Made by a program: the position numbers and the translations under genes. This document shows positions 5,782-63,750 of a stretch of DNA of 64,000 nucleotides, one piece after another (position 1 is the stretch's first letter; each line of letters starts with the position of its first letter). This DNA comes from an uncultured Planctomycetales bacterium (GTDB lineage Bacteria; Omnitrophota; Gorgyraeia; Gygaellales; Profunditerraquicolaceae), in assembly GCA_964645795.1 (NCBI GenBank), contig CAZYCL010000003.1, forward strand, positions 188,290-252,289. Direction: 5' to 3'. The notes under the pieces are model-generated. The model saw only the letters and a list, made by a program, of their open reading frames with translations, was not told the DNA's origin and ran no database searches.

Positions 5782-5784
5782 ACG

Positions 5785-29210: not shown

Positions 29211-29218
29211 CCGGATTT

Positions 29219-29255
29219 GGGGACGGTTCCGGGACCTGTCCCCGGAACCGTCCCC
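29219..29255. repeat. REP-like perfect palindrome GGGGACGGTTCCGGG-acctgtc-CCCGGAACCGTCCCC
   Basis: 15-bp perfect arms; lies between the LolA-like and permease genes. Confidence 0.5.
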
Positions 29256-29265
29256 AAAAATAGAA

Positions 29266-33860: not shown

Positions 33861-33867
33861 GCAAAAT

Positions 33868-33933
33868 GGGGACGGCTCTCTAAAGAGGGCATCTAAAGGA
33901 AATGGGGACGGTTCTCTTTAGAGAACCGTCCCC
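33868..33933. repeat. REP-like palindrome pair (partial copy + full copy GGGGACGGTTCTCTTTAGAGAACCGTCCCC) acting as a convergent terminator
   Basis: ggggacggctctctaaagagggcatc ... ggggacggttctctttagagaaccgtcccc. Confidence 0.5.
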
Positions 33934-33976
33934 ATTTATCACGAGGTTTTACCCTCGCGCGCTCAACTCCTATCCC

Positions 33977-48514: not shown

Positions 48515-50733
48515 TGGAGTAACCCGCTGTATACTGATTCGTATCTTGAAGCCATCTTCTGAACATTAAATATCTCGATTAAATCAGAATAAGCATGTTC
48601 AACCAACCTATTCCTTAATGAGACATCGGTAACCACTGAATAAAGACTGCCAGCTAACGCGTCCACCTGACCGGCATCAACCAGCATTCCGTTCATCCTG
48701 TCCTTGATAACCTGAGACACAGCACCAACTCTTGTAGCCACAATCGCAGTTTTTGCCGCCATACCCTCAAGTATATTCAACGGTAGCCCTTCGATATAGG
48801 AAGCGCTGACTAGAATATCGGTCAAGGAGTATATATCCTGCATGTCCTTTCTGATACCGGCAAAAATAAAACTTCCTTTTGGCAGCTCCCTGTCGGCAAT
48901 TGATTCCAGTTCGCTGCGCAACGGTCCGTCACCAACAAATAATAATTTTATGGATCTAACCTTATCAGTAAGAATACGGAAGCTTTTAATTAAAATGTCC
49001 TGACCCTTTTCCCGGCTTAACCGTCCCACGGACGATATAACAACATCATTCTCTCCGATCTTGAATTCTTCCCGCAGCCGTTTTAGATCGTTTTTCCCCT
49101 TTCTGACAAATTCAGAATGGTCTATGCCGTTATAAATAACTTCTAATGACTCGGACGCAATCTTCTTATTGATCAAGTCGCCCTTTATCTCATCTGAAAC
49201 AGCTATAACCTTATGGGCAAAACGCAAAACCAAGGCATCCAAGGCCTCGTAAAGCTTAAGCTTGCTGTCTGTCCCATGCCATACATGGTTGGTGGCGACC
49301 CATTTGGTTTTAAGAAAGCGCGTTGCGCAAAACCCTATTAAATCCGATTTATAATTATGAGTATGGAGGATATCAATCTTATGTTTTTTTAAATACCGCC
49401 TTACTCTTATTATGGCCAGAAAATCAAATTGCCAGAGACAGTCAAAAAATGCAGTTTTAAAATTACGCCTTGCCGCTTCTTCGATCATCTCCAGGTGAGG
49501 ATTATGAAAATTACTCAGTGCGCCAACGATTACAGAAATATTATTGCAGCTTTTAGCTAAGCCCAAAATCACATTCTCCGCACCGAATATTCCATTACTA
49601 CTAACCAGGTGCAATACCTTGGGCTTATTCAAATGTAATAATAATTTTTCATATTTAGCGAGCATTGCCTGAAGTGAAAATTTTGTATTGGCAGTCTCTT
49701 CGGCATTTACCGCTATTTTCCTCCGCAACTCATCATTTTTAAGCAGATTACGGATTGCCCAAGATATGGCCGCCGGGTTGCCTGGTTCTATCAATATTCC
49801 ATTTACACCATCAGTTATAACTTCTGTATTGCCGCCAACCTTAGTGGCAATTATCGGCTTAGCCGCAGCCATATATTCCAGTAGCGCATTTGATAATCCT
49901 TCGCTTAATGAAGGAAGAATACATATATCGGATAAATCCAACAAATCGACTACGTCATTCCTTTTACCGAGAAAAATAATCCTGTCTTGAAGCCGTTTTT
50001 CTTTAACCATAAACGAAAGCATGCTACGCAATGGACCATCGCCGATCAACAGCAGATAGGCATTTGGGAAATCATTTGACGTGGAGACAAACCCCTCGAC
50101 CAGAAATTTATGCCCTTTAACAGGCGTAAAATTCCCAACGCTTACCATTATTAAATCGCTGTCGGTAAACCCAAGTTCTTTTTTTAGCGCTTCTGATCTA
50201 ACATTATTGCCGAATCTCGCTGCATCAACTCCATTATACAGAACCTCAATCTTATCATCAGGCACCCCTTCTTCCTTGACTACCATTTTCTTTACACCTT
50301 CTGAAACAACGATTATCTTCGCCACAAAAACATTTATTAATCTATAAGCCTTTTTGTGAAGGCCATTCCGCCAAAATCCCTCATCCCGTCTGCTGGAAAA
50401 AATATTTTTGACACCGGATAAATAAGAAAAAAAAGTACCCCAAATATCCGCACTGAAGTGATAAGTAATAACTGTATCAATATTTTTTTTCTTTATAAAA
50501 CATAATAACTTAAATCCTTTCAAGATGCCATTTAAATCATAAATACGGGTAATACCTAACCCCTCAGCGTCTATATTTAATTTCTTGACTTCATCTGGAA
50601 TGAAATTCTGATGCAGGGCTTTTAAATATAGCTCATGTCCTCTTTCGGATAAAAATTTTAATAGCTCAAAAACCTGCCTTTCGGCACCGCCTTTAATATC
50701 TTCCAATACGTCAATCAGAACCAATATTTTCAT
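48511..50733 (-). CDS. Tandem double family-4 glycosyltransferase (two complete GT4 units fused)
   Basis: 740 aa; two GT4 units each with the EGLSNALLEYMA / EGLPLNILEGMA E-x7-E motif. Confidence 0.7.
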   Translation of the reverse strand: MKILVLIDVLEDIKGGAERQVFELLKFLSERGHELYLKALHQNFIPDEVKKLNIDAEGLGITRIYDLNGILKGFKLLCFIKKKNIDTVITYHFSADIWGTFFSYLSGVKNIFSSRRDEGFWRNGLHKKAYRLINVFVAKIIVVSEGVKKMVVKEEGVPDDKIEVLYNGVDAARFGNNVRSEALKKELGFTDSDLIMVSVGNFTPVKGHKFLVEGFVSTSNDFPNAYLLLIGDGPLRSMLSFMVKEKRLQDRIIFLGKRNDVVDLLDLSDICILPSLSEGLSNALLEYMAAAKPIIATKVGGNTEVITDGVNGILIEPGNPAAISWAIRNLLKNDELRRKIAVNAEETANTKFSLQAMLAKYEKLLLHLNKPKVLHLVSSNGIFGAENVILGLAKSCNNISVIVGALSNFHNPHLEMIEEAARRNFKTAFFDCLWQFDFLAIIRVRRYLKKHKIDILHTHNYKSDLIGFCATRFLKTKWVATNHVWHGTDSKLKLYEALDALVLRFAHKVIAVSDEIKGDLINKKIASESLEVIYNGIDHSEFVRKGKNDLKRLREEFKIGENDVVISSVGRLSREKGQDILIKSFRILTDKVRSIKLLFVGDGPLRSELESIADRELPKGSFIFAGIRKDMQDIYSLTDILVSASYIEGLPLNILEGMAAKTAIVATRVGAVSQVIKDRMNGMLVDAGQVDALAGSLYSVVTDVSLRNRLVEHAYSDLIEIFNVQKMASRYESVYSGLLQ

Positions 50734-52040
50734 TTCTTACTTTCTTTTAACGCTTTATTCGTTTGAGAAATTTCCTGAGCCGTTATGAAATTGCTCCGCT
50801 CTACTAAACCTAGAAATATCCAATAATATGCTCCAAGCTGCAGATATGTCCACCTATCTCCGAAAAAATTACCTACCATCACAGCAAGTCCACAGGCCGC
50901 AAAACCTAATCCTAAGCCTTTCAAAATTCTGTCTTTGCTTCTGCGAAAGAGCTTTAATCCTTTCTGGATAGCCAAAATCATGATCATTATCAAAAAGATT
51001 ACACCCGTAACACCCTGCTCCATCAATGTCCTGAGATAGAGATTATGCGTATCTCTTTTCGAGCCAACGTAGGATTTAACATTATAGCCTACGCCGATCA
51101 AAGGACTTTGTAGGAAATACTCTATGCTTTCCTGCCAATAGTCCAGGCGCTTGCTTGCGGATTCATCAAGTTCTCCTTCATGTTCGGTGAAAGTAAGCCT
51201 CTCGATTACCCTGGCAGGCAAAATGAATTGCCAAGATAAAGCTAAAACCAATATAACAACCAGAAGAATCCTGTTCTTTGCCAAGCCAATAAGGAACAAG
51301 CCGGCAAGTATAGCAAAATAGGCGCCGCGGGAAAATAGAAACACAAGGCAATAAAGATTCAGAGAAATAATAGTACCAAGTGACAGTCTCCATTTTAAAG
51401 CCCTTTCATGCAAAAACAAACCTATCAACACAAGGGTATAAGTAGCATAAAAGGCAGCTACTTCATTTGCCCCTAACCATTCAAAAGTCCCGTGGAATTT
51501 AGCCCGTGAGGTCCATGACCCCGCGTATCTCACTTCGGATAGGACCGACCGATCCATCAAAAACATAGACAAACAGACGAATATAATGGCGCGCTTCAGA
51601 GTTTTCTTTTCTGTTATGTTGTTTAAGGTAATAAGGAAGAGTATCGGCAGCATCATATAATTTTTCCAATTTTGCAGCCTGATAACCGTTAAGTCGCAAT
51701 TGAGGGGCAAACCAAGAAAAAGAGTGCCCTGCCAGAAACTAAAATAAGTGAAGATTAAATACAAAAAAAGGATAATATTGAATGAACTTGGCGTAAATAA
51801 CCTTTGCCCGCTCGATAGCTTGCTTACCAGCCAGCCGATAAACATCGCTAAAACCAAAAGGTCGTTTATATCCTTACCGAAAGGGAAGGTAAAAAGCTTC
51901 ATTATCACATTCTGCAAGGGGATAAACAGAATGAGAAAATACATGCCGTACTTGACGCGCCCGGTTAATGAAGCAATGAAAGCCGCTACCGCGCCTGCGT
52001 AGATAAAGAAAGGCATTACATTATTCAATTCATGCGTCAT
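50730..52040 (-). CDS. O-antigen ligase / Wzy-like polymerase family membrane protein (exosortase-locus O-glycosylation ligase-like)
   Basis: 436 aa, ~10 TM helices with a large periplasmic loop. Confidence 0.55.
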   Translation of the reverse strand: MTHELNNVMPFFIYAGAVAAFIASLTGRVKYGMYFLILFIPLQNVIMKLFTFPFGKDINDLLVLAMFIGWLVSKLSSGQRLFTPSSFNIILFLYLIFTYFSFWQGTLFLGLPLNCDLTVIRLQNWKNYMMLPILFLITLNNITEKKTLKRAIIFVCLSMFLMDRSVLSEVRYAGSWTSRAKFHGTFEWLGANEVAAFYATYTLVLIGLFLHERALKWRLSLGTIISLNLYCLVFLFSRGAYFAILAGLFLIGLAKNRILLVVILVLALSWQFILPARVIERLTFTEHEGELDESASKRLDYWQESIEYFLQSPLIGVGYNVKSYVGSKRDTHNLYLRTLMEQGVTGVIFLIMIMILAIQKGLKLFRRSKDRILKGLGLGFAACGLAVMVGNFFGDRWTYLQLGAYYWIFLGLVERSNFITAQEISQTNKALKESKK

Positions 52041-52576
52041 GTTCTCTTCTCAATGATTTTCGCCGGAACGCCGACCCAAACAGTATTATCCGGAGCATCA
52101 GTTATAACTACTGCATTTGCACCGATTTTTACATTGTTTCCGATCTTTATATTACCAAGCACCTTTGCCCCTGAACCAATAAATACATTATCTCCAATAA
52201 TAGGCACCCCTGTCCTTCCAGCGCCCTTCGTCCCGATTACCACACCCGGCGCTATACTGCAATTTCTTCCAATAACAACGCAACCATTAATTATAATTCC
52301 CCCAAAATGTCCAATATAGAACCCTTCTCCGATCTGCACACTGAATGGTATAGAGATTCCAGTAAATATCTCTATAATCTTAAAAAATAAAAAACATATT
52401 ACTTTTGGAATAAATGATATAAACTTTATCTTAAATCCTCGGTGCACCCAATAGCCTAATCTATAAATAGCGATTGCCCAAAGGGCTTGAGAAGATAATA
52501 GGTAAAGAATGCTCCCCTTGGTAATTTGCTCAACCTCAATGAACCTTTCTAAATCTTTTCTAAATTTGTTCAACAT
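52037..52576 (-). CDS. Hexapeptide-repeat (LbH) acetyltransferase, WcaB/serine acetyltransferase-like
   Basis: Left-handed beta-helix hexapeptide repeats (IGENAVIGANAVV..., GDNVFIGSGAKVLGNIKIGNNVKIGANAVV). Confidence 0.65.
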   Translation of the reverse strand: MLNKFRKDLERFIEVEQITKGSILYLLSSQALWAIAIYRLGYWVHRGFKIKFISFIPKVICFLFFKIIEIFTGISIPFSVQIGEGFYIGHFGGIIINGCVVIGRNCSIAPGVVIGTKGAGRTGVPIIGDNVFIGSGAKVLGNIKIGNNVKIGANAVVITDAPDNTVWVGVPAKIIEKRT

Positions 52577-52580
52577 AAAA

Positions 52581-53288
52581 TTAGTATTGTTTTTTTATAA
52601 TGATGTCCTTAATGATTTCAATCTTCTTGTTTCTTTCGGTTAAGAATTTATCCATATCTATTTGTGCTTGTTCTTTCAGAAGCTTCTTTCTTAAGATCCA
52701 GGTCATACCACCCCAATGCCTAATGTCGTTTTTAAATCCATATTTATAGAATTTCCACTTATTTTGCCTAGCAAACTGGAAATATGCAATTGCACCCGTA
52801 TCAAATCCCGTAATTTTGCCCCAATGTAAATCAAGCTCATCTTGCGCCTGTTTTCTAACCAGCATTGCCAGAGGGAAAAATCTTTTATTTAAAGGAGAAA
52901 ATAAGCTCAATTGAGACTTTAACCCATACAAATAATTATAGGCCAAAACTCCAAGAGCGCCAACCTTAGGGAAGCTTTCCATAACCTCTACTCTTCTATT
53001 TAACCATCCCTTTCTAAGGATTTGCACATCGTCGTGAAGAAAAATAAAAAAAGGGGTATCGACAGACTTAGCTAAGGTATCTTTCGGCCGCAAAGGATCC
53101 GGGCAATCTAGCATTTTTATGTCGCCTTGTGAATACAGAAATGAACTCGTTTCTTCGTCTAAACCGGCATTTCCAATAACAATCCTATAGGGATAGTCAG
53201 TATATTTACGTATTGTCAAAAGGCACAATTCGATTATATATCTGGAATTAAAACGACTGGGTATAAGAATAGAAATCTCCTCTTTCAT
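52581..53288 (-). CDS. Hypothetical protein, possible GT-A-like glycosyltransferase
   Basis: 235 aa; ISILIPSR N-terminus resembling a GT-A beta1 strand; FIFLHDDV; low certainty. Confidence 0.3.
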   Translation of the reverse strand: MKEEISILIPSRFNSRYIIELCLLTIRKYTDYPYRIVIGNAGLDEETSSFLYSQGDIKMLDCPDPLRPKDTLAKSVDTPFFIFLHDDVQILRKGWLNRRVEVMESFPKVGALGVLAYNYLYGLKSQLSLFSPLNKRFFPLAMLVRKQAQDELDLHWGKITGFDTGAIAYFQFARQNKWKFYKYGFKNDIRHWGGMTWILRKKLLKEQAQIDMDKFLTERNKKIEIIKDIIIKKQY

Positions 53289-54286
53289 ATTGAATTTGAA
53301 TAGAAACGGTCCTTAACCGCTTTAAAATATGATTTAATTTGTGAAGGTATCATTAATATTAATGCTAAAGGAATAATCATAGGATCGTATCCATAAATAC
53401 TCAACGACTTTAGGTAGAACTTTAATGCTCTTATTTTATCAGCCTGTCGATATGCTAATATACCTTTTTCCTTAAATTTTCTTGCAGCTATGCGCCTTCT
53501 AAATACCCTGATCAATCCCTTATCAAAATCAAGCTGATTCAGAATTTTTATATGCTTGACGTAGCGTTTTCTTTCAAAAAGATAAAGTTTATATAAATCT
53601 TTAGCATGGCTACTTAAATAAAACCTACAAATGCTTAAAACTTTGTCTATAAATACGAATTTTTCAGCATTAAGAAAAGCCCTGAACCATAAATCGATGT
53701 CCGTGGAAATTATTTGATTTTCATCGAAAAGCCCTATACTCAATAAAAAATCCTTTCTAAACAAAATTGAATTTGAATCTACAAAAAACCCCTTCTGGAT
53801 CCCCATCCGAAAGAATATTTTCCCATCGCAAAGATATATCTGATCATGACCTTCAATTATTGATTGAGTATATGTTTTCATAAAGTCCTTTGTAAAAAAA
53901 TGCCTGGATCTGCTATCAAGAATTTTTTTGCGTTTGCCTATTACTAAATTTGCTTTATAAGCATCTAATGCCTTTAGCCTCAATTCAATGCTGTCATCCG
54001 TATAATAATCATCGGAGTCTAAGAAACATACGTAGTCACCCGAAGCTTCGCTTATCCCTCTATTTCTAGCTGATGCCTCGCCCTTATTCTCTTGATAGAT
54101 ATATTTTATTTTGCCAGGCGCCATTTTTAGAAAACCATCTACTACTTCCCTGGTATCATCTTTTGAGCCGTCATCAACAATTACAATCTCGAAATCTTGG
54201 TAAGTCTGTCTTAGGAGGCTTTCTACGGCTACCGGCAAATGCTTACCGCAATTGAACGTAGGGATTATTACGCTTAATTTAAACAT
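53285..54286 (-). CDS. Family 2 glycosyltransferase
   Basis: LSVIIPTFNCGKHLPVAVESLLRQTYQDFEIVIVDDGS...FLDSDD. Confidence 0.75.
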   Translation of the reverse strand: MFKLSVIIPTFNCGKHLPVAVESLLRQTYQDFEIVIVDDGSKDDTREVVDGFLKMAPGKIKYIYQENKGEASARNRGISEASGDYVCFLDSDDYYTDDSIELRLKALDAYKANLVIGKRKKILDSRSRHFFTKDFMKTYTQSIIEGHDQIYLCDGKIFFRMGIQKGFFVDSNSILFRKDFLLSIGLFDENQIISTDIDLWFRAFLNAEKFVFIDKVLSICRFYLSSHAKDLYKLYLFERKRYVKHIKILNQLDFDKGLIRVFRRRIAARKFKEKGILAYRQADKIRALKFYLKSLSIYGYDPMIIPLALILMIPSQIKSYFKAVKDRFYSNSI

Positions 54287-55266
54287 TATAAATATCTTTC
54301 AGATTTAATATTACACAATTTACTATAGTTAACACCGTAAAGCCTTCCTATAAGCATTTCGAATTTGGAGGATTCAAGTATTCTGCTGGTAAGCCGAGAG
54401 GCTTTTGCAGTATCAAAACAACTATGAACGCTGTGCATCTCATGCCATTTTACTCCTCGCTCGCGTAAAGAAAACTCCCAAACAGACCTGTTCTTATGGT
54501 AACTATTAGCGATAAGAGTTGCCGGGATATTGATGATTGTCGCTAAAATAGACGAGTGTAGTCTGTTTGTAATAATTTCTTTTGCCATGGCGTGTAACAT
54601 TATCCAATGCTCAAAGTTCTTGCAAAATCTTATAGGGTCAAGCCATAGACTTAGAATATTTCTCTTGAAGCAATCTTTTAGCTCCTTATCTCTTCTAATC
54701 GCATATAACTTATATTTGCCATAAACCTGGTCCTTATGCAGATCCTGATAATTTAAATTCAAGGCAGTATCATGATCCAGTAGAATTTCTACGGTGGAAG
54801 GAAGGTTATCCTTTAAGAACGCGTATGAAACGCGTTCGCGGGCAAAAATGTAAACCTTGTTACAAGAACAACCCCTGAAAATAGGTTTTATCGATTCTTT
54901 CAGAAAAGAAGAATCAGTATAGAATGTCGTTGGCCCCACTATGGTCATTCCCCTATGCGTCTTAACGATTCTATTTAAAGCTTGCATAGGGGTTCCAGAC
55001 CACCAAGGAACAAAACCCCCACTACCATGAATATATATAACCGTGTCGCTATCATATTCAGAAGTCATAAAATTCATGAATTTGACAGTTTGATAATCTA
55101 TGCCAGAGAAATCCGCTAATTTATATGCGCCTCTATATATCAAATAATCACCGTAGTTACCGCCCGGCTCTACAAAGATAAATTTATGCTTTTTATACTG
55201 CCTAAACAACGATAGAAGCAAAGTTGAAGCCGTATTATTTCCTGTTGGTTCAGTTCCCGTAGTCAT
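54286..55266 (-). CDS. Polysaccharide pyruvyl transferase family protein
   Basis: 326 aa; PGGNYGDYLIYRG resembles the PS_pyruv_trans GxNxGD motif. Confidence 0.5.
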   Translation of the reverse strand: MTTGTEPTGNNTASTLLLSLFRQYKKHKFIFVEPGGNYGDYLIYRGAYKLADFSGIDYQTVKFMNFMTSEYDSDTVIYIHGSGGFVPWWSGTPMQALNRIVKTHRGMTIVGPTTFYTDSSFLKESIKPIFRGCSCNKVYIFARERVSYAFLKDNLPSTVEILLDHDTALNLNYQDLHKDQVYGKYKLYAIRRDKELKDCFKRNILSLWLDPIRFCKNFEHWIMLHAMAKEIITNRLHSSILATIINIPATLIANSYHKNRSVWEFSLRERGVKWHEMHSVHSCFDTAKASRLTSRILESSKFEMLIGRLYGVNYSKLCNIKSERYL

Positions 55267-55299
55267 AATTTAATATATTGATGTCCTTAGCGTAGATCT

Positions 55300-56808
55300 T
55301 TAATACCTTAAGAATACGACTTTACTGAGATAACTTCTCTCTGTCCTATTAAAACCGAAAAAGACTATAAAAATTAAGAAAAAGATCAATTGAGTAAGAG
55401 CTAAACCTCCTAAAAGCAAATAGTTCGGCGCAACGAAACCTCTAAATATTAACCAGGAAAAATAAAAAATAAAAAAGCACTTTATAGCTATTGGCAATAA
55501 TATCTCTGTATAATATTTATTAACCTTTAACCCGATGAATTTACAGGTATAGATTGGCTGCACAAAAAGTTTGGTAATTACCATAGGGATAGCGGTCCCC
55601 ATGGCGACGCCGAATATTCCGAACTTTTTGACTAAAATCAAGCTCAATACTAAATTAGCAACTCCCTCCATAAGATTGCTTATCGCATAAAACCTATGTT
55701 TGGATATCCCCTGCAATAACTGTATGGAAGGAACCTGCATAGATGAAATAATGCTTGGGACTATTAAAACCAGTAATATATTGAACGCGTAGATATATCT
55801 ATCAGTTACCCACCTGGCAATGAATGCCTTTCCAAACATGATCAAACAACCACCAATAAAAATCGACATATAACAAGATATTTTGGTTAATAGAATGAAC
55901 TTCTCCCTAATGGCCCTATAATCTCCCTTGGCCTCATATTGGCTGAATAACGGCATGGTTATTCCTAATGAGGTATTAATTAAGCTAGCAAAATATTTTA
56001 CAAGCCGCGATGCAATCGAATATACCGTGATAGAGCTTACTCCTACGAAACCAGCAATCACGAAATTATCCAGGTCGAACTTAAACCTGTTGGCAAGCTC
56101 TGCTATAAAAATATAACTGCTATAAGAAAAGATCTCTTTGATCCTTTTCTTATCTACAAGCCTGATGCTCAAGCGCATATATGTGGCCAGTCTTTGTGCG
56201 AATAGATTTATTAGAAAATAATATCCGAGCGAAGTGCCTAAGCTGATAAACGCCAGGGACATAATCCCGTATCCTTTTTTTAAGAAAATAACGATTAGGG
56301 CCGTCCTAACGGCAACCCGGATGATCTCTATCAGGCTTTTTAAATCAAACCTAAGGTGCGCCGATAGCACGCCTGAAAAAGCACGATTAGGAAATCCTAT
56401 CGCAATTTCAAGCCCTAATAAAATTACAACTTTCTGTAAAAGCGCTATTTCATTTACATTCCTAATGAAAAAAGGAAGGAGAAATGAAATTAATAAAGCC
56501 AATAGAAATACGCTTATCCCTATGATAACGTATATCATCAATGAAGTATTGATGGCTATATTGGCTTCTTTGTAGTCTTTATTCCCGAGAGCTCTGGAAA
56601 CGTACCGCTGAGTAGCAGCATCCATGCCGAAATCAAACAGCTGGTAAAACCCATTAAAAGAACCTAACAAGATCCAGAAACCATACATCCTATCGCCCAA
56701 AGAATATATAATAAAAGGCATCAGCAAAAAAGAGGTAAATAAATTTACAAAGAAATTTACGCTCCTTAACCCCGAACCCTTGATTAATATTCTAGCCCTT
56801 GAGCTCAT
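55300..56808 (-). CDS. Polysaccharide flippase, Wzx/MOP superfamily
   Basis: 502 aa, ~14 TM helices. Confidence 0.7.
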   Translation of the reverse strand: MSSRARILIKGSGLRSVNFFVNLFTSFLLMPFIIYSLGDRMYGFWILLGSFNGFYQLFDFGMDAATQRYVSRALGNKDYKEANIAINTSLMIYVIIGISVFLLALLISFLLPFFIRNVNEIALLQKVVILLGLEIAIGFPNRAFSGVLSAHLRFDLKSLIEIIRVAVRTALIVIFLKKGYGIMSLAFISLGTSLGYYFLINLFAQRLATYMRLSIRLVDKKRIKEIFSYSSYIFIAELANRFKFDLDNFVIAGFVGVSSITVYSIASRLVKYFASLINTSLGITMPLFSQYEAKGDYRAIREKFILLTKISCYMSIFIGGCLIMFGKAFIARWVTDRYIYAFNILLVLIVPSIISSMQVPSIQLLQGISKHRFYAISNLMEGVANLVLSLILVKKFGIFGVAMGTAIPMVITKLFVQPIYTCKFIGLKVNKYYTEILLPIAIKCFFIFYFSWLIFRGFVAPNYLLLGGLALTQLIFFLIFIVFFGFNRTERSYLSKVVFLRY

Positions 56809-56816
56809 GGTAATAA

Positions 56817-57848
56817 TTAAATATACTTAAGGTGAGATTTATTTTTTGCCTGAGCGATGTCATTTTCATTTAAATCAAGCGTACTAAGAAAGATATTAAC
56901 TGCCTGGGCTAAATCCTGATGCTCTTCCTGATAGGCTCGGTTAATTGCTTCGTCCCTATTAATCTGTCCTGCCCGCACCATAGCTGCATATTTGGTGGTT
57001 TTCTCGCCAAAACCCCATTTCTGCACCACCAGATAATTCTTAACTGGAGCAAACAAGCAGTCAATATGGTCGCTTGAGCCGTCAACCCTCTTCTCCCAAC
57101 CAAGTTCATTGTAAATAGTATCCTTTATCTGTTTATCATTCCAGACAATATAATCCGGCAGTGATATCTGCCGGCGATAGCGAGTGAAACGGCCGTGTTT
57201 GAGGCGGCGGATAATCTTCTGTAAAGCGGTCTGCTCAAGAAAATCCGCCATCTCTTTCTTTCTGATAACTCCGGTAGCTACAGCCTGGAATAGTTTATTA
57301 CTGAAGGAATATATCTTCTTCCCCCTTGATTCAATCTGGGAAGAAAACCCTGAGACGATCAACGGAACGTCATATAGTTCCGCAACGCGGTGCACCGTTG
57401 CCCATATCCCCATATCGCAAGGAAAACAGAATTGCCCTGTCTTAAGCAGAAATTCTCGATAAAGCTTACGCATTGTCTCCCGCCCTGGGCCGTAACAAAC
57501 ATAGGCACAATCGGTCTTTCTGATGATATTTTCCATGTTAAGCAGCGCCTCGGGAGTACGCAAGCCGTTATTGAAATTAACCGCCAATACCTTCAGTCCG
57601 AATTTCCTACGGCATAGATAGAGGGTATACGAACTATCCTTGCCGCCGCTAAAAGGTACAACACAGTCGTAACGCTTATTTTGTGCCTTGGCCCAGGCGA
57701 ATATCTCTTCCAGCTCTTTTCCTAGTTTATTCAGATCGCGACTTCCATAGGTATTGCCATATTCATGGCACTTATGGCAAATACCTTTTTCGTCAAATCT
57801 GATATCCGGATACGCAGCCGGAAGAATACAACGAGCACAGCGCTCCAT
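56817..57848 (-). CDS. N-acetyl sugar amidotransferase (PP-loop ATP pyrophosphatase family, WbuX/LPS-biosynthesis type)
   Basis: N-terminal CARCILP...CHKCHEY zinc ribbon; PP-loop VPFSGGKDSSYTL. Confidence 0.65.
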   Translation of the reverse strand: MERCARCILPAAYPDIRFDEKGICHKCHEYGNTYGSRDLNKLGKELEEIFAWAKAQNKRYDCVVPFSGGKDSSYTLYLCRRKFGLKVLAVNFNNGLRTPEALLNMENIIRKTDCAYVCYGPGRETMRKLYREFLLKTGQFCFPCDMGIWATVHRVAELYDVPLIVSGFSSQIESRGKKIYSFSNKLFQAVATGVIRKKEMADFLEQTALQKIIRRLKHGRFTRYRRQISLPDYIVWNDKQIKDTIYNELGWEKRVDGSSDHIDCLFAPVKNYLVVQKWGFGEKTTKYAAMVRAGQINRDEAINRAYQEEHQDLAQAVNIFLSTLDLNENDIAQAKNKSHLKYI

Positions 57849-57861
57849 AATTTTTATATTC

Positions 57862-58512
57862 CTATTTTGCTGCCTTAAGCAGTAACTTCCTCTGCTCCAT
57901 TAATCCCTTAATAATAAATATTACGCCTAATATTTCGCATGCTTCCTCAATAATGTATTCAGAAGCCCACAACCATCGAGGTTCGCTGTGGGGCATAAAG
58001 TTGATCGTTGCCTCTAAAACGAATGCACCGGATAGATAAAGCAATGCCCCGGTCAATAACATATCTCTGACCTTTTTCGAAAATTTTAAATATTTTTTTA
58101 ACTTAAATGTAAAAATGATTATCGTAAATAATACTATTGGGCCTGATACAATTACCCAGGCAGAATTGACGCTTCCGGGTCTAAAGGCATATTTTCTCAG
58201 CAATAAACCTATGCTTTCATGTATCATGGCTGTTTCATCAAGTGACATAAATATTAAGCAGACAGCTAAGAACTGCCACATCCGCTTGCCATTTTGATAA
58301 GTCTTGCTGGCTACAGAGCAACTATAAGCAAAATATGAAGCTATCGCCAGCAGCATACTGGAAAACCAGGTGGAAAAATTACTTTCCAGCCTGAAACTGA
58401 ATAACCTATCGAAATTCCAACAATATTTGGCCGTAAACAAATTAATTATATTGGCCAAAAGAAGCATTGCTGCTATAACAAATAGCGATCTTATAAGCTT
58501 GCTTTCGTTCAT
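57862..58512 (-). CDS. Hypothetical polytopic membrane protein
   Basis: 216 aa with ~6 hydrophobic helices. Confidence 0.4.
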   Translation of the reverse strand: MNESKLIRSLFVIAAMLLLANIINLFTAKYCWNFDRLFSFRLESNFSTWFSSMLLAIASYFAYSCSVASKTYQNGKRMWQFLAVCLIFMSLDETAMIHESIGLLLRKYAFRPGSVNSAWVIVSGPIVLFTIIIFTFKLKKYLKFSKKVRDMLLTGALLYLSGAFVLEATINFMPHSEPRWLWASEYIIEEACEILGVIFIIKGLMEQRKLLLKAAK

Positions 58513-58516
58513 TTTC

Positions 58517-59695
58517 TTAACCCTTATTTATGCTCTTAAAGTATTCTACAGTTCTCTTCAACCCTTCTTCAAACCCTACCGGGTCTTTATATCCGAGCAT
58601 GGATTTGATCTTGGAAATGTCGGCGCAGGTGCGGAAGACGTCGCCCGGGCGGACAGGTAAGAATTTAGGCTTGATGCTCTGACCGATGATCTTGTTCAGG
58701 TAATCAACAAGCTGTAGGACAGTATTATCCTGGCCGTTGGCGACGTTGAAGACTTCATGGGCGGCAGGGATACTTCCGCTTGTTGTATCGGAAAAGCTTG
58801 GGACAGTCCCCTTTTGGTTGCTCTGTGATAGCCCTGACGGGGACAGTCCCTGCTTTTCCGCCTCGGAGGACAGTCCCTGTTTGGCCGCAAGTCCCTGCTT
58901 TTCCGCCTTCGGGGACAGTCCCCGATGTAGAGGCTGGGTCATGGCAAGGACATTTGCTTGGACGACGTTGTCAATATAGGTGAAGTCGCGGGATTGTTTA
59001 CCGGTGCCAAAGATCGGCGGCTGTTCGTCATGCAGGATACAGTGGATGAACTTGGGGATGACTACGGCATACTCGTCATCCAGCGCCTGTCGCGGGCCAA
59101 AGACGTTAAAGTAACGCAGGCCTACTGTCTCTAAACCCCAGGCGCTTGAGAAAATACGGCAGTAATACTCATTGGCAAGCTTGCTTAAGGCGTAAGGCGA
59201 GATAAGGAGCGGAAAGGCGTCCTCTCTCTCAGGAAACTTATCCGTGTCGCCGTAGACAGAACTGGAGGATGCGAATACGAAGCGCTTGACCTTGTTTTTA
59301 AGAGCTGACTGCAGGAGGTTAAGCGTGCCGCCGATGTTGACGTCATTATAGCTTTCGGGGTCTTTCATGGATTTTGGAACGCTGCGCAGGGCTGCCTGGT
59401 GGCTGATGTAGTCGATGCCTTCGCAGGCTTTGTCGCAGGTGGCTTTGTCACGGATGTCGCCTTCGAATACTTCCAAATCGGGGACAGAACTAGGCACCCC
59501 GCCGTATCGGATCGGCGGGTGCCCCACCTCCTGTGGGGACAGTCCCTGCTTGACTGCCTGTTTGGCCGCCTCGACATTCTCGCGTTTGCCGCTTGAGAAA
59601 TTATCAAGAACTCGGACGAAGTGGCCGTCTTTGAGTAATCGCTCAACGATATGCGAACCTATAAAACCGGCGCCGCCTGTTACTAAAAATCTCAT
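58517..59695 (-). CDS. NAD-dependent nucleotide-sugar epimerase/dehydratase carrying two in-frame low-complexity insertions derived from GGGGACAGTCCC repeats
   Basis: Rossmann GGAGFIGSH, catalytic YxxxK (YALSKLANE); insertions KQAVKQGLSPQEVGHPPIRYGGVPSSVPD and RGLSPKAEKQGLAAKQGLSSEAEKQGLSPSGLSQSNQKGTVPSFSDTT coincide with DNA repeats at 59479-59569 and 58799-58922. Confidence 0.75.
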   Translation of the reverse strand: MRFLVTGGAGFIGSHIVERLLKDGHFVRVLDNFSSGKRENVEAAKQAVKQGLSPQEVGHPPIRYGGVPSSVPDLEVFEGDIRDKATCDKACEGIDYISHQAALRSVPKSMKDPESYNDVNIGGTLNLLQSALKNKVKRFVFASSSSVYGDTDKFPEREDAFPLLISPYALSKLANEYYCRIFSSAWGLETVGLRYFNVFGPRQALDDEYAVVIPKFIHCILHDEQPPIFGTGKQSRDFTYIDNVVQANVLAMTQPLHRGLSPKAEKQGLAAKQGLSSEAEKQGLSPSGLSQSNQKGTVPSFSDTTSGSIPAAHEVFNVANGQDNTVLQLVDYLNKIIGQSIKPKFLPVRPGDVFRTCADISKIKSMLGYKDPVGFEEGLKRTVEYFKSINKG

Positions 59696-59738
59696 CTTAA
59701 TCCTCCTAATGGTTGTTATGTCGGAAATCAGATTTGCT

Positions 59739-59776
59739 GCGGGTTACGTGTTACGGATTACGTATTACGGATTACG
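59739..59776. repeat. GTTACG-heptamer repeat between the BY-kinase and epimerase genes (same family as 4594-4630 and 5232-5304)
   Basis: gcgggttacgtgttacggattacgtattacggattacg followed by T6. Confidence 0.35.
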
Positions 59777-59784
59777 TTTTTTCA

Positions 59785-60573
59785 TTACAGATACCGGTAG
59801 ATGTAAGCCGGAATGTGATACTGAATGCTGGTCAGAACGCAGCCGAGGAGCTTGACCTGGGACTGCTTTAAGAGGCTTTGGGCGTGCTTTACGATGCCTT
59901 TTTGGGTGCGGCCTGCCTGCACTACCATCATCACCCCGTCCAGGTGGGTGCCCAGAAGGCTGGGGTCAGTGACCGCGATAATCGGCGGGACATCCACGAC
60001 AATATAATCATACCTGCTCTTAAGGTTGGTGAGCAGACCCGAGACTTTCGCGGATGAAAAAAGCTCGGCCGCGTTATGCACGCTTTTGCCGGCAGGAAGC
60101 ACGGTCAGGTTCTCTATCCCGATATTTAGGAGAGCGTCATCTACGGCGGCGTTATCGCCGATTACTTCAGCCAGGCCTGTTTCGGCAGTAACCCCCAAGT
60201 ACTTACTGATACGCGGACGGCGCAGGTCAGCGTCAACCAACAGGATGCTTTTCTTGTTAAGGTCCTTGGCCATGGTAATAGCCAGGTTTACGGAGGTAAC
60301 GGTCTTGCCTTCTCCGTGGATGGCGCTGGTAATGGCAAAGGCCCTTACCGGCTTCTGGGGATTGAGGCTCTGGATATGCGTGCGAAGCGTGCGGTATTGT
60401 TCCGTGACCGGAGAATGAGAATCATAGAAAGTCACTATCCGCGGGTCGATCTTGGAGTCAACCGTCTTTTTGGCTATGAACTGGTATTTGACCTGGTTCT
60501 GGCCGTCAAGCTTCTCTATGTGCGAGAGGCGCTCTTGTGCCGCCTTCTTGAGTGCGTCGGTAATCTTACCCAT
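59785..60573 (-). CDS. BY-kinase (CpsD/CapB-family tyrosine autokinase, P-loop ATPase domain only) with C-terminal Tyr cluster
   Basis: Walker A-like AITSAIHGEGKT, Walker A' LLVDADLRRP, Walker B YDYIVVDVPP; C-terminal YHIPAYIYRY; RBS aaggag. Confidence 0.7.
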   Translation of the reverse strand: MGKITDALKKAAQERLSHIEKLDGQNQVKYQFIAKKTVDSKIDPRIVTFYDSHSPVTEQYRTLRTHIQSLNPQKPVRAFAITSAIHGEGKTVTSVNLAITMAKDLNKKSILLVDADLRRPRISKYLGVTAETGLAEVIGDNAAVDDALLNIGIENLTVLPAGKSVHNAAELFSSAKVSGLLTNLKSRYDYIVVDVPPIIAVTDPSLLGTHLDGVMMVVQAGRTQKGIVKHAQSLLKQSQVKLLGCVLTSIQYHIPAYIYRYL

Positions 60574-60611
60574 TAGTTCTCCTTCGTAAGTAAGTGTGTG
60601 GTTTAACGATT

Positions 60612-60641
60612 GGTCACCAGGCCACCTGTCACCAGGTCACC
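60612..60641. promoter_or_regulatory. GGTGAC-CTG-GTGAC direct-repeat motif pair in the BY-kinase upstream region (same motif as upstream of dinB and of the HTH gene)
   Basis: Minus-strand reading GGTGACCTGGTGACAGGTGGCCTGGTGACCAATCG, 30 bp upstream of the RBS. Confidence 0.35.
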
Positions 60642-60659
60642 GGTACAAATCTCTATTTT

Positions 60660-60689
60660 GGGGACGGTTCTCTTAAGAGAACCGTCCCC
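60660..60689. repeat. REP-like palindrome GGGGACGGTTCTCTTAAGAGAACCGTCCCC
   Basis: Perfect 13-bp arms; between the ATPase stop and the BY-kinase upstream region. Confidence 0.5.
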
Positions 60690-60702
60690 AAAACTCCTAT
60701 CG

Positions 60703-61557
60703 TTATAGCTGTTTGCTCAATACGTCGAGCCCTTCTTCTTTTAATTCTGTAAAACGTTCCAAAGAGCGCTCTTTGATGACTTCGTCTATGATCTTTGCGT
60801 CAATGACCTTTGTATCCAGGACATAAGCCGACAAAAGCGCCGAGTCGCAGGTAAGATTGACCAGGCGCGGCGTGCCTTTGGAGTAAACGTATATCGCCTC
60901 TATCGCATCGGGAGTGAATATCTCCTGCTGGCTGCCGGCAAGCTTCAGGCGGTGTTTTATGTATTCGGTTGTCTCGGCGCGTGTAAGGCTGTAGAGGTGG
61001 TAGTAAACGGCGATGCGCTGCTTGAACTGTTCTAATTTTATGTTGGAAAGCTTTGCCTTTAACTGCGGCTGGCCCAGCAGTATTATCTGAATAAGCTTCT
61101 CCTTTTCAGTCTCAAGGTTTGAAAGCATGCGCACCTCTTCAAGCACCTTGGAGCTTAAGTTTTGCGCCTCATCGATTATAAGCACGACATTGATGTCGGC
61201 GGCCAGCTGCTGGATAAGGAACTGATTGAGCTGTGAGAGCAGCTTCTGCTTGGTGCCCGGCTTGTAATCCACCTCCAGCTCTTCAAGCATCTCGGTAATA
61301 AGCTCGCGTGCCGTCAGATGCGTGTTGGTAATCAGCGCGATCTTTGTCCCGGCCTCCATCTGGTTGAGCAGCGTGCGGCAGACCGTGGTCTTTCCGGAGC
61401 CGATCTCGCCGGTTATGACCACAAACCCCTTCCTCTCATCTATGGCATAGCGCAGGCTGTTTAAGGCCTCCACGTGCTTGGGGCTGGGGAAGAAAAACTT
61501 AGAATCAGGTGTAGTGTTAAAGGGTTTTTCGCTAAAACCAAAGAACTGCTCGTACAT
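60703..61557 (-). CDS. AAA-type ATPase (ExeA-like, PEP-CTERM-locus putative secretion ATPase)
   Basis: Walker A GEIGSGKTT, Walker B VVLIIDEAQNL. Confidence 0.7.
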   Translation of the reverse strand: MYEQFFGFSEKPFNTTPDSKFFFPSPKHVEALNSLRYAIDERKGFVVITGEIGSGKTTVCRTLLNQMEAGTKIALITNTHLTARELITEMLEELEVDYKPGTKQKLLSQLNQFLIQQLAADINVVLIIDEAQNLSSKVLEEVRMLSNLETEKEKLIQIILLGQPQLKAKLSNIKLEQFKQRIAVYYHLYSLTRAETTEYIKHRLKLAGSQQEIFTPDAIEAIYVYSKGTPRLVNLTCDSALLSAYVLDTKVIDAKIIDEVIKERSLERFTELKEEGLDVLSKQL

Positions 61558-61561
61558 AAAA

Positions 61562-62875
61562 TTACCTCATCAATAGGTATATAAGCAATGAAACGACGAT
61601 AAGCGCCGCACCCACAATTCCGGCAAGCTTAACCTTAACTTTGATCTTTGCCCTTTCCTTCTCCATCTCTTCCTGAGTGGTTATCTTGGAAATGGCGCCT
61701 AAAACCGTCATATCAAGGCTGCGCTTGGCATCTTCGATATCAAGCACGGACTGATCGGTGAATTCGCGTAAAAATATCATGCCCACGCCCGAGCCAAGCC
61801 CAAGGAATATCCCTGCCAGCATCACTACTGCCTTATTCGGTTTAATGGGCCTAAGAGGCAATCTCGGCGGGTCAATTATGGTATAGCGGGTGCCGGCGCG
61901 CGAAGCCTCAAGGCGCTGGGTGATCTTGGCGGTCTCGAGCTTCTGCAGGAGCATGGAGTAGATCTTCTCGTTTACGTCAACATCCCTGGCCATAGTGGAG
62001 CTTAACCTATCCATCAGCATTACCTTATAGAGGGCATCGTTAGCCTGCTGTTCGGTATAGGGGACCTTGGAAGTCGTGGCCTGCTGGCTGACTTCGTTAT
62101 TGATAAGCTTGTCCAGCTCATCCTGCATTGCCTGGCGCGTGGCGTCATTGATAGCTACATCCCCGACCTTTATCTCGAACTCACCCGAATTAAGCTGCTC
62201 TTCGGCGAGTTTTATCCTATAGCGCAGCTCCTTTACTATAGGGTGAGCCTCGGTAGAATCCAATAGCAGGTTCTTTAACTCATCCTGAAGCTTGGATACC
62301 TCGGCTTCCTTGATCTTGCGTTTATAGATCGCCAGCTGTTCGGTGATGAACTTTATGGCGATATCGGTCTCTTTGGTCTGGGTCTGGACGTTCTTCTGCA
62401 CCAGGATCTCCATCAGGTTTTTAGCCACAAGCTGCGTCTCAGCCGGGCTCTTTTGGCCGCGGTAGGCGATCCTTATGATGTTGCCGGAGCGCATCTGAAC
62501 CAGGATGTTCCTTCTTAGGTTTAATATCAGGGCTTCATAGCCTGCCTGGTCGCGGATGTCTTTGGCAAGATTCAGCCTCTCTGTCAACTCAACCAGGCTA
62601 TTCCAGCCAAGGATCGTCTCGCGGATGCTCTCCATCCTCTGGCCGGCAGAAGTGGAAACCGCCAGGTTCTGGATAAGAGGATTGATTATCTTCTCCTCCT
62701 CTACCAGTATTATGGCTGAGGACTCCCAGGTGCGGGGCAGGATAAAACAGGCGGCTATGCCCAGGATCAACCCCGCGTAGGTCGGCCAGACCAGAAACCA
62801 TTTGCGGCGGAAGAAGAGCTTGAGGTAGTCAACAGGGCTCTGGTACTTGGATGTCTGTTCTTGTTCGAATTCCAT
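61562..62875 (-). CDS. Polysaccharide chain-length determinant protein (Wzz/PCP family, PEP-CTERM-locus type)
   Basis: 437 aa; N-terminal TM, long coiled-coil periplasmic region, C-terminal TM helix LAGIVGAALIVVSLLIYLL. Confidence 0.65.
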   Translation of the reverse strand: MEFEQEQTSKYQSPVDYLKLFFRRKWFLVWPTYAGLILGIAACFILPRTWESSAIILVEEEKIINPLIQNLAVSTSAGQRMESIRETILGWNSLVELTERLNLAKDIRDQAGYEALILNLRRNILVQMRSGNIIRIAYRGQKSPAETQLVAKNLMEILVQKNVQTQTKETDIAIKFITEQLAIYKRKIKEAEVSKLQDELKNLLLDSTEAHPIVKELRYRIKLAEEQLNSGEFEIKVGDVAINDATRQAMQDELDKLINNEVSQQATTSKVPYTEQQANDALYKVMLMDRLSSTMARDVDVNEKIYSMLLQKLETAKITQRLEASRAGTRYTIIDPPRLPLRPIKPNKAVVMLAGIFLGLGSGVGMIFLREFTDQSVLDIEDAKRSLDMTVLGAISKITTQEEMEKERAKIKVKVKLAGIVGAALIVVSLLIYLLMR

Positions 62876-62916
62876 TAAGCTTCTCTCTTTCAGGTTAAAG
62901 CTAACCTTTTGATAAA

Positions 62917-63750
62917 TTAGTAGTTGATGTTGGTCTTTCCTTCAAGCTTTTCCACGGCGCCTTTTCCGGTAGCCGCGCTTTCCGGCACTGAAGAGCTCAC
63001 GCCCAGGACCGTCGCGATGGGGCTTATCTCGCGGATAGCCTTGGCGATCAGGGTGGCCGGCACGTAAAGGATATCTCCGGATTTGATTGTCACGTCTTTA
63101 CGCAAGTCCCCGTAATAGAGCAGGGAAAACAGGTCGACTTTGCGGACTTTGGACTTGCCTTTCTCCGAAGGAGTGATTATGCGGCAGCGGCGCATCGCGG
63201 CGTTCTGCGTAGGCAGGCCTGCCATATGTATCGCCTCTCTTAAGGATATCTCTTCCGAGCGCATGGTAAACCGGCCGGGCGCAGCGACTTCTCCGATTAC
63301 GTAGAAAACCTTGCTGCCAAACTGGACTATCGTAATGTTTACCTCGGGGCTTACTACAAACTGCGACAGGGCATCGCTGAGCTTTTTCTCAAGCTCTTTC
63401 TTGCTTAAGCCCTTTACGTTCAAATCACCGACGTACTTATACTGAAGCTTGCCTTCCTGATCAATGGGGTATTTACCGCTGAACTCCGGATGACGCATTA
63501 CTTCTATTTCGACTACATCGTTGGGGCCCAGGGTGTAATTTACGGGGTCAAATTGAACATCGGAAGCCTGGCCCTCTTCTGTCGTTTTGCCCGCAGGCTG
63601 CATATACTGGCCAGTGCTTACCTCAAAGCTTGTGTTCCTGTCCCTGCCGCGGTTAATGATAACGTCTTCGGCAAAAACCACGCTTACGACGTTAAGCAAG
63701 AATGCGGCGAAGAGAAAATAAGTAAATCTTTTCATGATGCCCTCCTTCAT
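62917..63750 (-). CDS. Polysaccharide export outer-membrane protein (Wza-like, PES/SLBB domains)
   Basis: Signal peptide; YTLGPNDVVEIEV polysaccharide-export motif; SLBB-like IKSGDILYVP. Confidence 0.75.
   Translation of the reverse strand: MKEGIMKRFTYFLFAAFLLNVVSVVFAEDVIINRGRDRNTSFEVSTGQYMQPAGKTTEEGQASDVQFDPVNYTLGPNDVVEIEVMRHPEFSGKYPIDQEGKLQYKYVGDLNVKGLSKKELEKKLSDALSQFVVSPEVNITIVQFGSKVFYVIGEVAAPGRFTMRSEEISLREAIHMAGLPTQNAAMRRCRIITPSEKGKSKVRKVDLFSLLYYGDLRKDVTIKSGDILYVPATLIAKAIREISPIATVLGVSSSVPESAATGKGAVEKLEGKTNINY

Follow-up and report, generated by a model that had tools for sequence, protein, structure and literature searches.

Short palindromic repeats in two loops of an exopolysaccharide-locus epimerase: probable copies of a dispersed element that also occurs within other genes

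A 64-kb stretch of DNA from an uncultured bacterium (64,000 nucleotides (nt) of contig CAZYCL010000003.1; hereafter the window) carries a nucleotide-sugar epimerase gene into which two segments of short palindromic repeats, named site 1 and site 2 in the order of translation, are read in frame. The host organism of the gene is probably a member of the Omnitrophota. The repeat segments are real and far beyond chance. They are likely to be copies, together with local tandem amplifications, of a short non-autonomous palindromic element that resembles repetitive extragenic palindromic sequences (REPs), REP doublets forming hairpins (REPINs) or miniature transposable elements with inverted repeats (MITEs), and that is tolerated in loops of the protein. 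Sequence comparisons support the view that the copies are insertions relative to close orthologues and that they belong to a dispersed family, found in intergenic DNA and in unrelated genes as well. A first-pass annotation of the window had described the gene as a coding region invaded by a mini-repeat that was tolerated as disordered loops; this interpretation is partly supported, holding in substance and lending itself to generalization. In-frame palindromic elements are of a known kind, and the epimerase gives a view of a possibly widespread, apparently undescribed phenomenon in uncultivated phyla.

The repeat core GGGGACAGTCCC, searched with at most one mismatch, occurs on the plus strand at 58799, 58839, 58866, 58911 and 59535 and nowhere else in the 64 kb. 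Both strands of the window together give 7 matches vs 0.18 expected, a number reached in none of 100 shuffles. All five GGGACAGTCCC cores of the window lie within the two sites of the epimerase gene; the tail GCTTTTCCGCC follows two cores, and the variants GTTTGGCCGC and GCTTGACTGC follow two others. A looser search of the window with GGGACNGTCCC added only three sites of the GGGACGGTTCC type, all of them in intergenic hairpins. On the coding strand the core GGGACTGTCCC is read as G-L-S-P (GGA CTG TCC CC) at four places and as G-T-V-P (GGG ACT GTC CC) at one, and since one core is read in two frames the repeated thing is DNA, not peptide. Two arms and a spacer make up the doublet unit, GGGACTGTCCCC-spacer-GGGGACTGTCCC when read on the coding strand, with GLSP encoded by the left arm and GTVP by the right. 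The arms are 12 nt long and each is palindromic, with a spacer of 3-4 nt (27-28-nt form) or about 27 nt (51-nt form) between them. The arms pair at 11 of 12 positions around a central T-T mismatch, so that the doublet is a direct repeat as well as an inverted repeat. Among 11 aligned doublet copies, 91.7% of the cells are paired vs 29-61% when the partner is slid. Site 1 and site 2 together contain 4 stop codons in the six frames vs 16.3 expected, a count as low as in about 0.07% of window segments.

Judged from its sequence, the gene product is an intact nucleotide-sugar 4-epimerase of the extended short-chain dehydrogenase/reductase type, similar to WbpP, WbgU and TviC. It matches PF01370 (Epimerase) with an E value of 6.8e-61 and 206 bits, the gathering cut-off being 20.9. 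The closest solved structures are 10ke/9pmn, WbgU and WbpP, and a Foldseek search with the model retrieved 9pmn, 1sb8, 3lu1 and 6dnt (E about 1e-31 to 1e-29, target-normalised TM 0.82-0.89). The AlphaFold2 model has a predicted TM score (pTM) of 0.81 and a core mostly above 90 in predicted local distance difference test (pLDDT). The NAD motif GxxGxxG corresponds to G7-G13 (GGAGFIG) and the catalytic residues to S143-S145, Y168 and K172, all of which are invariant in 120 orthologues. The nearest NCBIfam model is TviC (NF011728); the score of 228 bits lies far under the 760-bit equivalog cut-off, and no substrate is therefore assigned. Fold, cofactor motif and catalytic Ser/Tyr/Lys are the same as in the WbpP/WbgU/TviC UDP-HexNAc(A) 4-epimerases, from which the window protein differs by 25 additional residues in the alpha2-beta3 loop (site 1) and 54 in the loop before the strand starting at aa 313 (site 2). 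These make it 79 aa longer than the shortest close orthologues, which have 313 aa, and the insert-free length of about 330 aa given in the first-pass annotation is to be lowered accordingly. Both segments are missing from the solved WbgU/WbpP-type epimerases and from many close orthologues. Site 1 is placed by the model between helix 38-49 and strand 74-78, with pLDDT below 50 at aa 59-69, and site 2 between helix 241-253 and strand 313-318, with pLDDT below 50 at aa 260-262, 267-269 and 272-297; in keeping with the disorder that had been proposed, the inserts fall in segments without model confidence, set between secondary-structure elements of an otherwise confident fold. Rossmann topology would put both loops where strands have their N-terminal ends, on the side remote from the cofactor. 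The inserts are probably neutral for the function of this epimerase. The GC content is 0.68 at site 1 and 0.59 at site 2, vs 0.50 in the gene core and 0.46 in the window.

The orthologue set consists of the 120 best homologues (307-472 aa), the named ones mostly from Candidatus Omnitrophota, with 69-84% identity to the query over aligned columns and 62-78% by BLASTP. The gene order Poly_export-Wzz-AAA_22-AAA_31-epimerase is common to the window and the loci L086, L087 and L209, which supports positional orthology of the compared epimerases. Extra residues are present at site 1 in 66 and at site 2 in 61 of the 120 orthologues; the C-terminus is variable in 48, and any other position in at most 11. 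The additional residues belong to several peptide families that look like translated palindromes (GLSP...GTVP/GDCP, KQFP...ETV, RHCEEPRRGDEAIS/VIASEAKQS, IDHRPSTIDP, PSPxxGEGKGEG, GGGTPGLPIGRGASV and PPIRYGGV), and the same family usually fills both sites of one gene. Pairs or groups with 90-95% core identity differ in the presence or family of the insert (P0043/P0091, P0003/P0009/P0026, P0048/P0076, P0005/P0007 and P0106/P0116). Both sites of locus L209 (P0048) hold the doublet GGGACTGTCCCCGAAGGGGACTGTCCC in identical 27-nt form, with AGGACTG as the start of the left arm in site 1, and further copies occur upstream and downstream; L210, 84% identical to L209, has short unrelated loops at both sites. 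In L087, four copies of one 50/51-nt element (GGGACTGTCCCCGCAGATGTTGATAAAYTTGAAACCAAGGGGACTGTCCC) occur within 4 kb, at epimerase site 1, at site 2, at the C-terminus of the AAA_22 gene and in an intergenic spacer. Cores number 9 in 21 kb of L087 and 8 in 3.6 kb of L085, where they include the C-terminal tail ending in KKGLSPQGTVPKI before the stop, vs none outside the epimerase in the window. L025 has a doublet in its 5' region. The KQFP...ETV family (GAAACAGTTTCC...GGAAACTGTTTC) has lengths of 27 and 51 nt and the spacer start GCA/GCAGA, as in the GGGAC-type elements. Between GGGAC-type and GAAAC-type elements, four arm pairs are changed on both sides, so that the palindrome is preserved from one type to the other. 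The 'empty' allele L212 retains a solo GGGACTGTCCC at site 2, where L211, 92.6% identical, has a GAAAC-type 51-mer. Among the listed loci of a genome-collection scan for orthologues (at least 80 loci, about 10 of them from Omnitrophota, with the source genome not among them), most are without the motif. Two epimerase homologues, L010 10001-11588 in an Omnitrophota metagenome-assembled genome (MAG) and L055 1070-2692 in a Phycisphaerae MAG, match over about 1.6 kb and not about 0.93 kb, which suggests much larger insertions in the same gene family. Orthologue P0027 (472 aa) has a C-terminal extension of about 90 aa with a POTRA-like Pfam match (PF08479), which may reflect gene fusion or read-through.

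A metagenome scan for the doublet returned at least 120 contigs. The test for open reading frames (ORFs) spanning a copy is unreliable in contigs of high GC, and it was therefore repeated on contigs below 52% GC, 40 of those listed, from which the coding and intergenic counts are taken. Among the matches listed on these contigs, about 20 of 45 doublets (~44%) fall within ORFs of 200 aa or longer, whereas about 14 are clearly intergenic. Over all 120 listed contigs, the ORF-spanning doublets are 54 sense and 54 antisense. In-frame copies occur in both orientations, the T-centred ones being read as GLSP/GDCP/GTVP and the A-centred ones as GQSP/GDSP/GTVP. At least 10 host genes are verified by Pfam, including those for IscS (cysteine desulfurase), NifU, QueA, FabD, two GT4 glycosyltransferases, a MiaB-like radical-SAM enzyme, ValRS, UvrA and TrpF; one listed contig, L126, is an orthologous exopolysaccharide locus. 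The 51-mer subfamily of the window (spacer start GYYAGRGCTA) recurs as near-identical copies of 49-50 nt in the unrelated contigs L151, L152 and L207. The copies in L152 and L207 are not spanned by any ORF that reaches 120 aa, and the copy in L151 is spanned only by a 126-aa antisense stop-to-stop frame; by their position downstream of a stop codon or upstream of a start, all three are apparently non-coding. In 2.9 million viral contigs, only 6 doublet matches were found, and by this rarity the element does not look phage-borne. A literature search for the motif itself returned primers and eukaryotic sequences only, and a preprint on complete Omnitrophota genomes has no occurrence of 'palindrom', 'MITE' or 'interspersed'. 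In the NifU/IscU gene of a Patescibacteria MAG (L100 6293-6796), RGLSPKGTVP occupies the loop of a beta-hairpin. This loop is hypervariable among the relatives (P0121-P0240), in 67 of 120, and the low-complexity peptides found there (SAVGS...QTANRK, KSKVKSQ, KRPLHGPLE) may be other translated palindromes.

The anatomy of the two sites is summarized in Table 1. Site 2 is read as RGLSP / KQGLAA / KQGLSS / KQGLSP / KGTVP. Its 51-nt doublet is bordered by the inverted flanks GGAAAAGC and GCTTTTCC, whose pairing lengthens the doublet hairpin to about 21 bp. The three tandem arm units are read as RGLSPKAE / KQGLAA / KQGLSSEAE, and the start-to-start spacing within the arm family, which counts the left arm of the doublet too, is 27 and 18 nt. 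The 33-nt repeat copies of site 2 are 91% identical at a spacing of 45, and the 21-nt copies 86% identical at spacings of 27 and 18. The minus-strand RNA of 58780-58945 folds with -69.3 kcal/mol (z = -4.1), and none of 200 shuffles was equally stable. At site 1, the 5' side of the core on the coding strand consists of GCGGCCAAACAGG and a 12-nt tandem (59545-59571), similar to site 2, and the arm unit is 86% identical to that of site 2. This arm and the PIRYGG palindrome form a composite unit that recurs in P0016/L085, again at site 1, and in orthologues P0004 and P0038, there as part of the C-terminal tail. In the comparison of the window gene with the L085 gene, the composite is the best conserved 57 nt (87.7%; gene mean 69%, standard deviation 6.7; next best stretch 77%). 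The RNA fold of site 1 is unexceptional (z = -1.4). A nested insertion at site 1, in which the 7-nt TGTCCCC would flank a 48-nt unit, was rejected as a simple event, as 55 nt is not a multiple of 3 and the two copies are out of frame with each other. A scan of 58300-59900 against Rfam (E <= 1) gave only a chance miRNA match with 23 bits against a gathering score of 60, and a promoter and terminator scan found no terminator-like site within either insert.

Table 1. Coordinates of the epimerase gene and of the repeat features at its two variable loops (window positions)
Feature	Position	Strand	Description
Epimerase host gene	58517-59695	minus	single long ORF of the region, 392 aa
Site 1 insert/variable segment	59480-59572	minus	aa 42-72; 31 aa vs 6 in shortest orthologues
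Sole full GGGACAGTCCC core of site 1	59536-59546	minus	read GLSP, in KQGLSP
Different palindrome GGCACCCCGCCGTATCGGATCGGCGGGTGCC	59493-59523 (31 nt)	minus	GGCACCCGCCGATCCGATACGGCGGGGTGCC on coding strand; read HPPIRYGGV
Half core closing site 1	59480-59487		
Site 2 insert/variable segment	58760-58936	minus	aa 254-312; 59 aa vs 5 in shortest orthologues (MAFFT, 120 orthologues)
Tandem left-arm amplification	58851-58923	minus	three units, left arm + 5' flank; unit GGCGGAAAAGCAGGGACTGTCC
51-nt doublet	58800-58850	minus	GGGACTGTCCCC-GTCAGGGCTATCACAGAGCAACCAAAA-GGGGACTGTCCC on coding strand; 27-nt spacer
Inverted flank GGAAAAGC (+ strand)	58790-58797		pairs with GCTTTTCC at 58852-58859

The first-pass annotation had both 58799-58922 and 59479-59569 consist of repeated units related to the REP core and translated in frame. 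The translation stands, as the ORF reads KQGLSP-type peptides at both sites. The composition is right for 58799-58922, which is made of three tandem arms and the 51-nt doublet, and wrong for 59479-59569, where one core, a half core, the 12-nt tandem and another palindrome are found. Two loops are indeed involved; by alignment their extents are those of Table 1, site 2 extending 39 nt beyond what had been given. A relation to the REP core is true in a loose sense: the epimerase repeat has the outer GGGGAC/GTCCCC in common with the intergenic hairpins GGGGACGGTTCTCT...AGAGAACCGTCCCC of the window, and one of these hairpins, at 29216-29258, contains an inner GGGACCTGTCCCC. The intergenic hairpins AAAWGGGGACGGTTCTCT...AGAGAACCGTCCCCWTTT of the window, perfect or near-perfect, are located at 19992-20059, 29216-29258, 33864-33937 and 60656-60693, directly after stop codons and between convergent or tandem genes, and represent a REP- or terminator-like family proper to this genome. 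A right arm of the intergenic-hairpin type (GGAAACCGTCCCC) is found in site 2 of orthologue P0008 (L213).

The reading of the segments as copies of a REPIN/MITE-like element, and not as an ancestral linker, is favoured by the dispersed family, the refilling of the same loops and the differences between close pairs. In such a history, the copies would have landed in, or been recombined into, the two most permissive loops of the epimerase, arriving by transposition or gene conversion, and would be near-neutral for the enzyme. The element is G+C-rich and almost free of stop codons in six frames, so that in-frame copies would merely add flexible surface loops rich in Gly, Ser, Pro and Lys to the Rossmann fold and leave the enzyme intact. 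As the arms repeat each other in direct as well as inverted orientation, tandem units could then arise from them through slippage in replication or through unequal exchange; the three additional left-arm units of site 2, and likewise the 12-nt duplication of site 1, may have come about in this way.

Several observations weigh against a mobile element of this kind. The other 63 kb of the window have no core outside the epimerase, so that the window copies may be old relics, or may have come in from elsewhere together with the gene. Neither a target-site duplication nor a clean empty-site junction was found where filled and empty alleles were compared (L209/L210, 84% identity; L211/L212, 92.6%), and the flanks of the 11 copies show a weak (G/A)(T/C)A | TGA preference with no consistent duplication. 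No transposase, RAYT/IS200-like or other, was linked to the copies; as weak evidence, Y1_Tnp is absent from the Pfam lists of the compared loci, and the ORFs of the window were not screened with a Y1 model. In the exopolysaccharide loci the orientation is nearly uniform, with 34 T-centred vs 1 A-centred sense-strand cores and, among the peptides of the orthologues, 50 GLSP+GDCP vs 0 GQSP+GDSP; this agrees as well with a small number of founder events and subsequent descent, or with constraint on the nucleic acid itself, as with repeated insertion. At the loop position, some 'empty' alleles have KGL.., KGLTP or KGLSH and may be decayed remnants, in which case part of the variation is loss and not gain. 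In the window and in L086, every copy is in the epimerase. The uniform orientation, the confinement to the epimerase and the position in a block of raised GC (see below) keep alive both a cis-acting role of the palindromes and the idea of homing to arm-like targets. The claim that the invasion was recent is unproven: with no further copy in the window there is no sign of a current burst in this genome, and only the local tandem duplication, with copies 86-91% identical, looks young.

That the palindromes are kept as DNA or RNA signals within the coding sequence, the peptide loops being a by-product, is unlikely. Candidate signals are operator sites for a dimeric exopolysaccharide regulator, or mRNA hairpins through which the polycistronic transcript is paused, protected or processed. 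The arms are palindromes of 11-12 nt with perfect symmetry, as is typical of dimeric binding sites, and this symmetry is kept across families through two-sided changes; the site 1 composite is better conserved than the gene around it, and the mRNA of site 2 folds far more stably than shuffles. In several loci, copies also cluster within the epimerase and near it, with nearly all of them pointing the same way relative to transcription, and those of L025, L151 and L207 are just 5' of genes or beside a TATAAT-like box. However, unrelated housekeeping genes from different phyla contain the same doublets in frame and in either orientation, and quite different palindrome families occupy the same two loops of close relatives; nor do the inserts contain a terminator-like site or an Rfam family, and the site 1 fold is ordinary. 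Unlikely as well, with a slightly smaller chance, are ancestral or functional low-complexity linkers, old and lineage-wide, that evolve by ordinary slippage and point mutation and resemble repeats only secondarily. Such linkers would suit the variability of the same two positions in more than half of the 120 orthologues, the uniform orientation, the KGL-like residues of 'empty' alleles and the want of further copies in the window. They do not suit identical 27-nt or near-identical 51-nt units at both sites and in intergenic DNA of one contig, the intergenic copies of the window's 51-mer subfamily in three unrelated contigs, a core read in different frames, relatives of 92-95% core identity with other families or nothing, or insert DNA that outconserves its gene, which is the opposite of a drifting linker. 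The orthologue alignment proposed in the first-pass annotation, in which the insertions were to be absent, came out differently in part, in that many orthologues carry similar motifs at the same loops; with close pairs that differ and a 51-mer that is also non-coding, the case against an ancestral linker nevertheless holds.

The first-pass annotation had also suggested a phase-variable or slippage-prone site, and a contingency locus, in which tandem units slip often and alter epimerase activity and so the composition of the polysaccharide, is very improbable. Site 2 does have three tandem arm units that are 86-91% identical, site 1 has its 12-nt tandem, and the locus is one for surface polysaccharide. 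All periods (12, 18, 27 and 45 nt) are nonetheless multiples of 3 and inside the ORF, so that slippage cannot switch the gene off by a frameshift, and only about three imperfect copies are present. Length polymorphism between samples was not seen at the assembly level, on which the comparison was made: four independent assemblies (ERR4524290, ERR4519284, ERR4524288 and ERR4539293) are 100% identical over the gene, with the identity extending over 1.3-3 kb, and the 90%-identity protein cluster consists of one sequence. Short G+C-rich palindromes are hard for assemblers, and a repeat-induced chimera or collapsed repeats from assembly or binning would be conceivable; with the identical sequence in four separate assemblies, the frame and all catalytic motifs intact, and analogous inserts in orthologues from many studies, the chance of such an artefact is negligible.

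The doublet-hairpin element, which we consider the likely source of the segments, is neither an RPE (Rickettsia palindromic element) nor a REPIN as those families are defined. RPEs sit in frame in many genes (PMC10969869) and, like the doublet, are non-autonomous palindromes in unrelated housekeeping genes that yield fold-compatible peptides and coexist as several families (PMC10969869). The doublet shares with them the frame-preserving palindrome in several unrelated genes and is set apart by length and host: RPEs are about 100-150 bp long and confined to Rickettsia, whereas the doublet has 27-51 nt and is found in Omnitrophota-like and Patescibacteria-like contigs, and the two are not expected to be related in sequence. 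To our knowledge, no work on RPEs describes different families that fill the same two loops again and again. REPINs are REP doublets that form hairpins, and tandem arrays of REPs also occur (PMC3116915). As in the doublet, the short palindrome is present mainly as doublets with a short spacer and a hairpin, singlets look like remnants, and there are tandem arrays (PMC3116915). The inverted arms and hairpin-capable spacer of REP/REPIN sequences are thus found in the doublet too. REPs and REPINs are, however, extragenic by definition, which does not apply to a doublet that is about 44% intragenic among the copies listed; REPINs are mobilized by RAYT (REP-associated tyrosine transposase) enzymes, and the doublet arms carry the central T-T mismatch that makes them a direct repeat also. 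Bacterial MITEs (ERIC, Correia, BOX and cyanobacterial elements) are likewise small inverted-repeat elements that are sometimes fused in frame with host ORFs; they mostly exceed 100 bp and have recognisable terminal inverted repeats as well as target-site duplications, whereas for the doublet neither a duplication nor a parent transposon was found. Uptake sequences (USS/DUS) are short motifs tolerated in poorly conserved protein segments with preferred reading frames. They are evenly spread at about 1 per kb, in contrast to the window, where five of five cores fall within 1.2 kb and the remaining 63 kb are empty of them, and the doublet, unlike them, is copied as whole 51-nt units with a conserved spacer. 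Readings as uptake sequences, CRISPR or integron attC sites were ruled out by density and anatomy.

A wider proposal, which we put forward tentatively and hold to be rather doubtful, is that the GGGAC and GAAAC doublets and the other loop palindromes belong to a class of very short, mobile palindromic DNA not yet described and widespread among uncultivated bacteria with small cells (Omnitrophota, Patescibacteria and others), persisting largely inside genes, homing to arm-like sequences and acting as a major source of loop-length variation. Homing would explain the refilled loops, the replacement of one family by another and the fixed orientation within a locus. If the reading of the segments as a dispersed element is right, very short REP-like palindromes are not confined to intergenic DNA, and in candidate phyla for which only metagenomes are known they repeatedly join proteins at permissive loops. 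Selfish DNA, rather than functional domains, may then account for the length outliers and "low-complexity" loops of such proteomes, which matters for annotation, and inserts at the same site would be non-homologous between orthologues, which matters for alignment, phylogeny and structure prediction. For the biology of mobile DNA, it would be a second system, independent of the RPEs of Rickettsia, for the entry of palindromes into coding DNA and their exaptation as loops.

In the exopolysaccharide locus, a conserved export block of high GC ends with the epimerase gene. At about 58515 there is a step in composition: the export and epimerase genes (58517-63750) have a GC content of 0.50-0.54 and 0.62-0.68 at third codon positions (GC3), and the glycan-synthesis genes downstream of the epimerase (50730-58512) a GC content of 0.33-0.45. 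Such a step is typical of a conserved flank beside a laterally exchanged, serotype-like variable block. A small MerR/HTH_17-like gene opens each of the orthologous exopolysaccharide loci, and several of these loci (L086 8727-9089 and 3633-4451; L087 2780-3586; L211 3404-12353) hold defence or mobile genes, among them bAvd/23S_rRNA_IVP, AbiEii, Fic, a Zeta toxin and an IS110-type transposase. Tandem heptamers GTTACG[TG] are present 5' of genes at 5232-5303 and 59740-59777, the latter array directly upstream of the epimerase start. Tandem repeats of the GGTGACC/GTCACCAC type are also present 5' of genes (5637-5782 and 60612-60641), including a perfect array of 34 nt x 2.5, and in L207 CGTAATCC repeats adjoin the doublet element. 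Elsewhere in the window, a 224-aa ORF on the plus strand (7192-7866), with no Pfam match, contains five 17-bp palindromes GGACAAnAATTGTCC with a 22-nt period at 7485-7602, read in frame as GQELSC / QDKNCP / GQKLSY / QDNNCP / GQKLSP and followed at 7612-7642 by an A/T-rich ACAGATACAGAC tandem. It looks like a replication-initiator-like gene with embedded iterons and origin, in the style of lambda O, and is possibly part of a mobile element beside the Y-family polymerase gene at 5773-6936.

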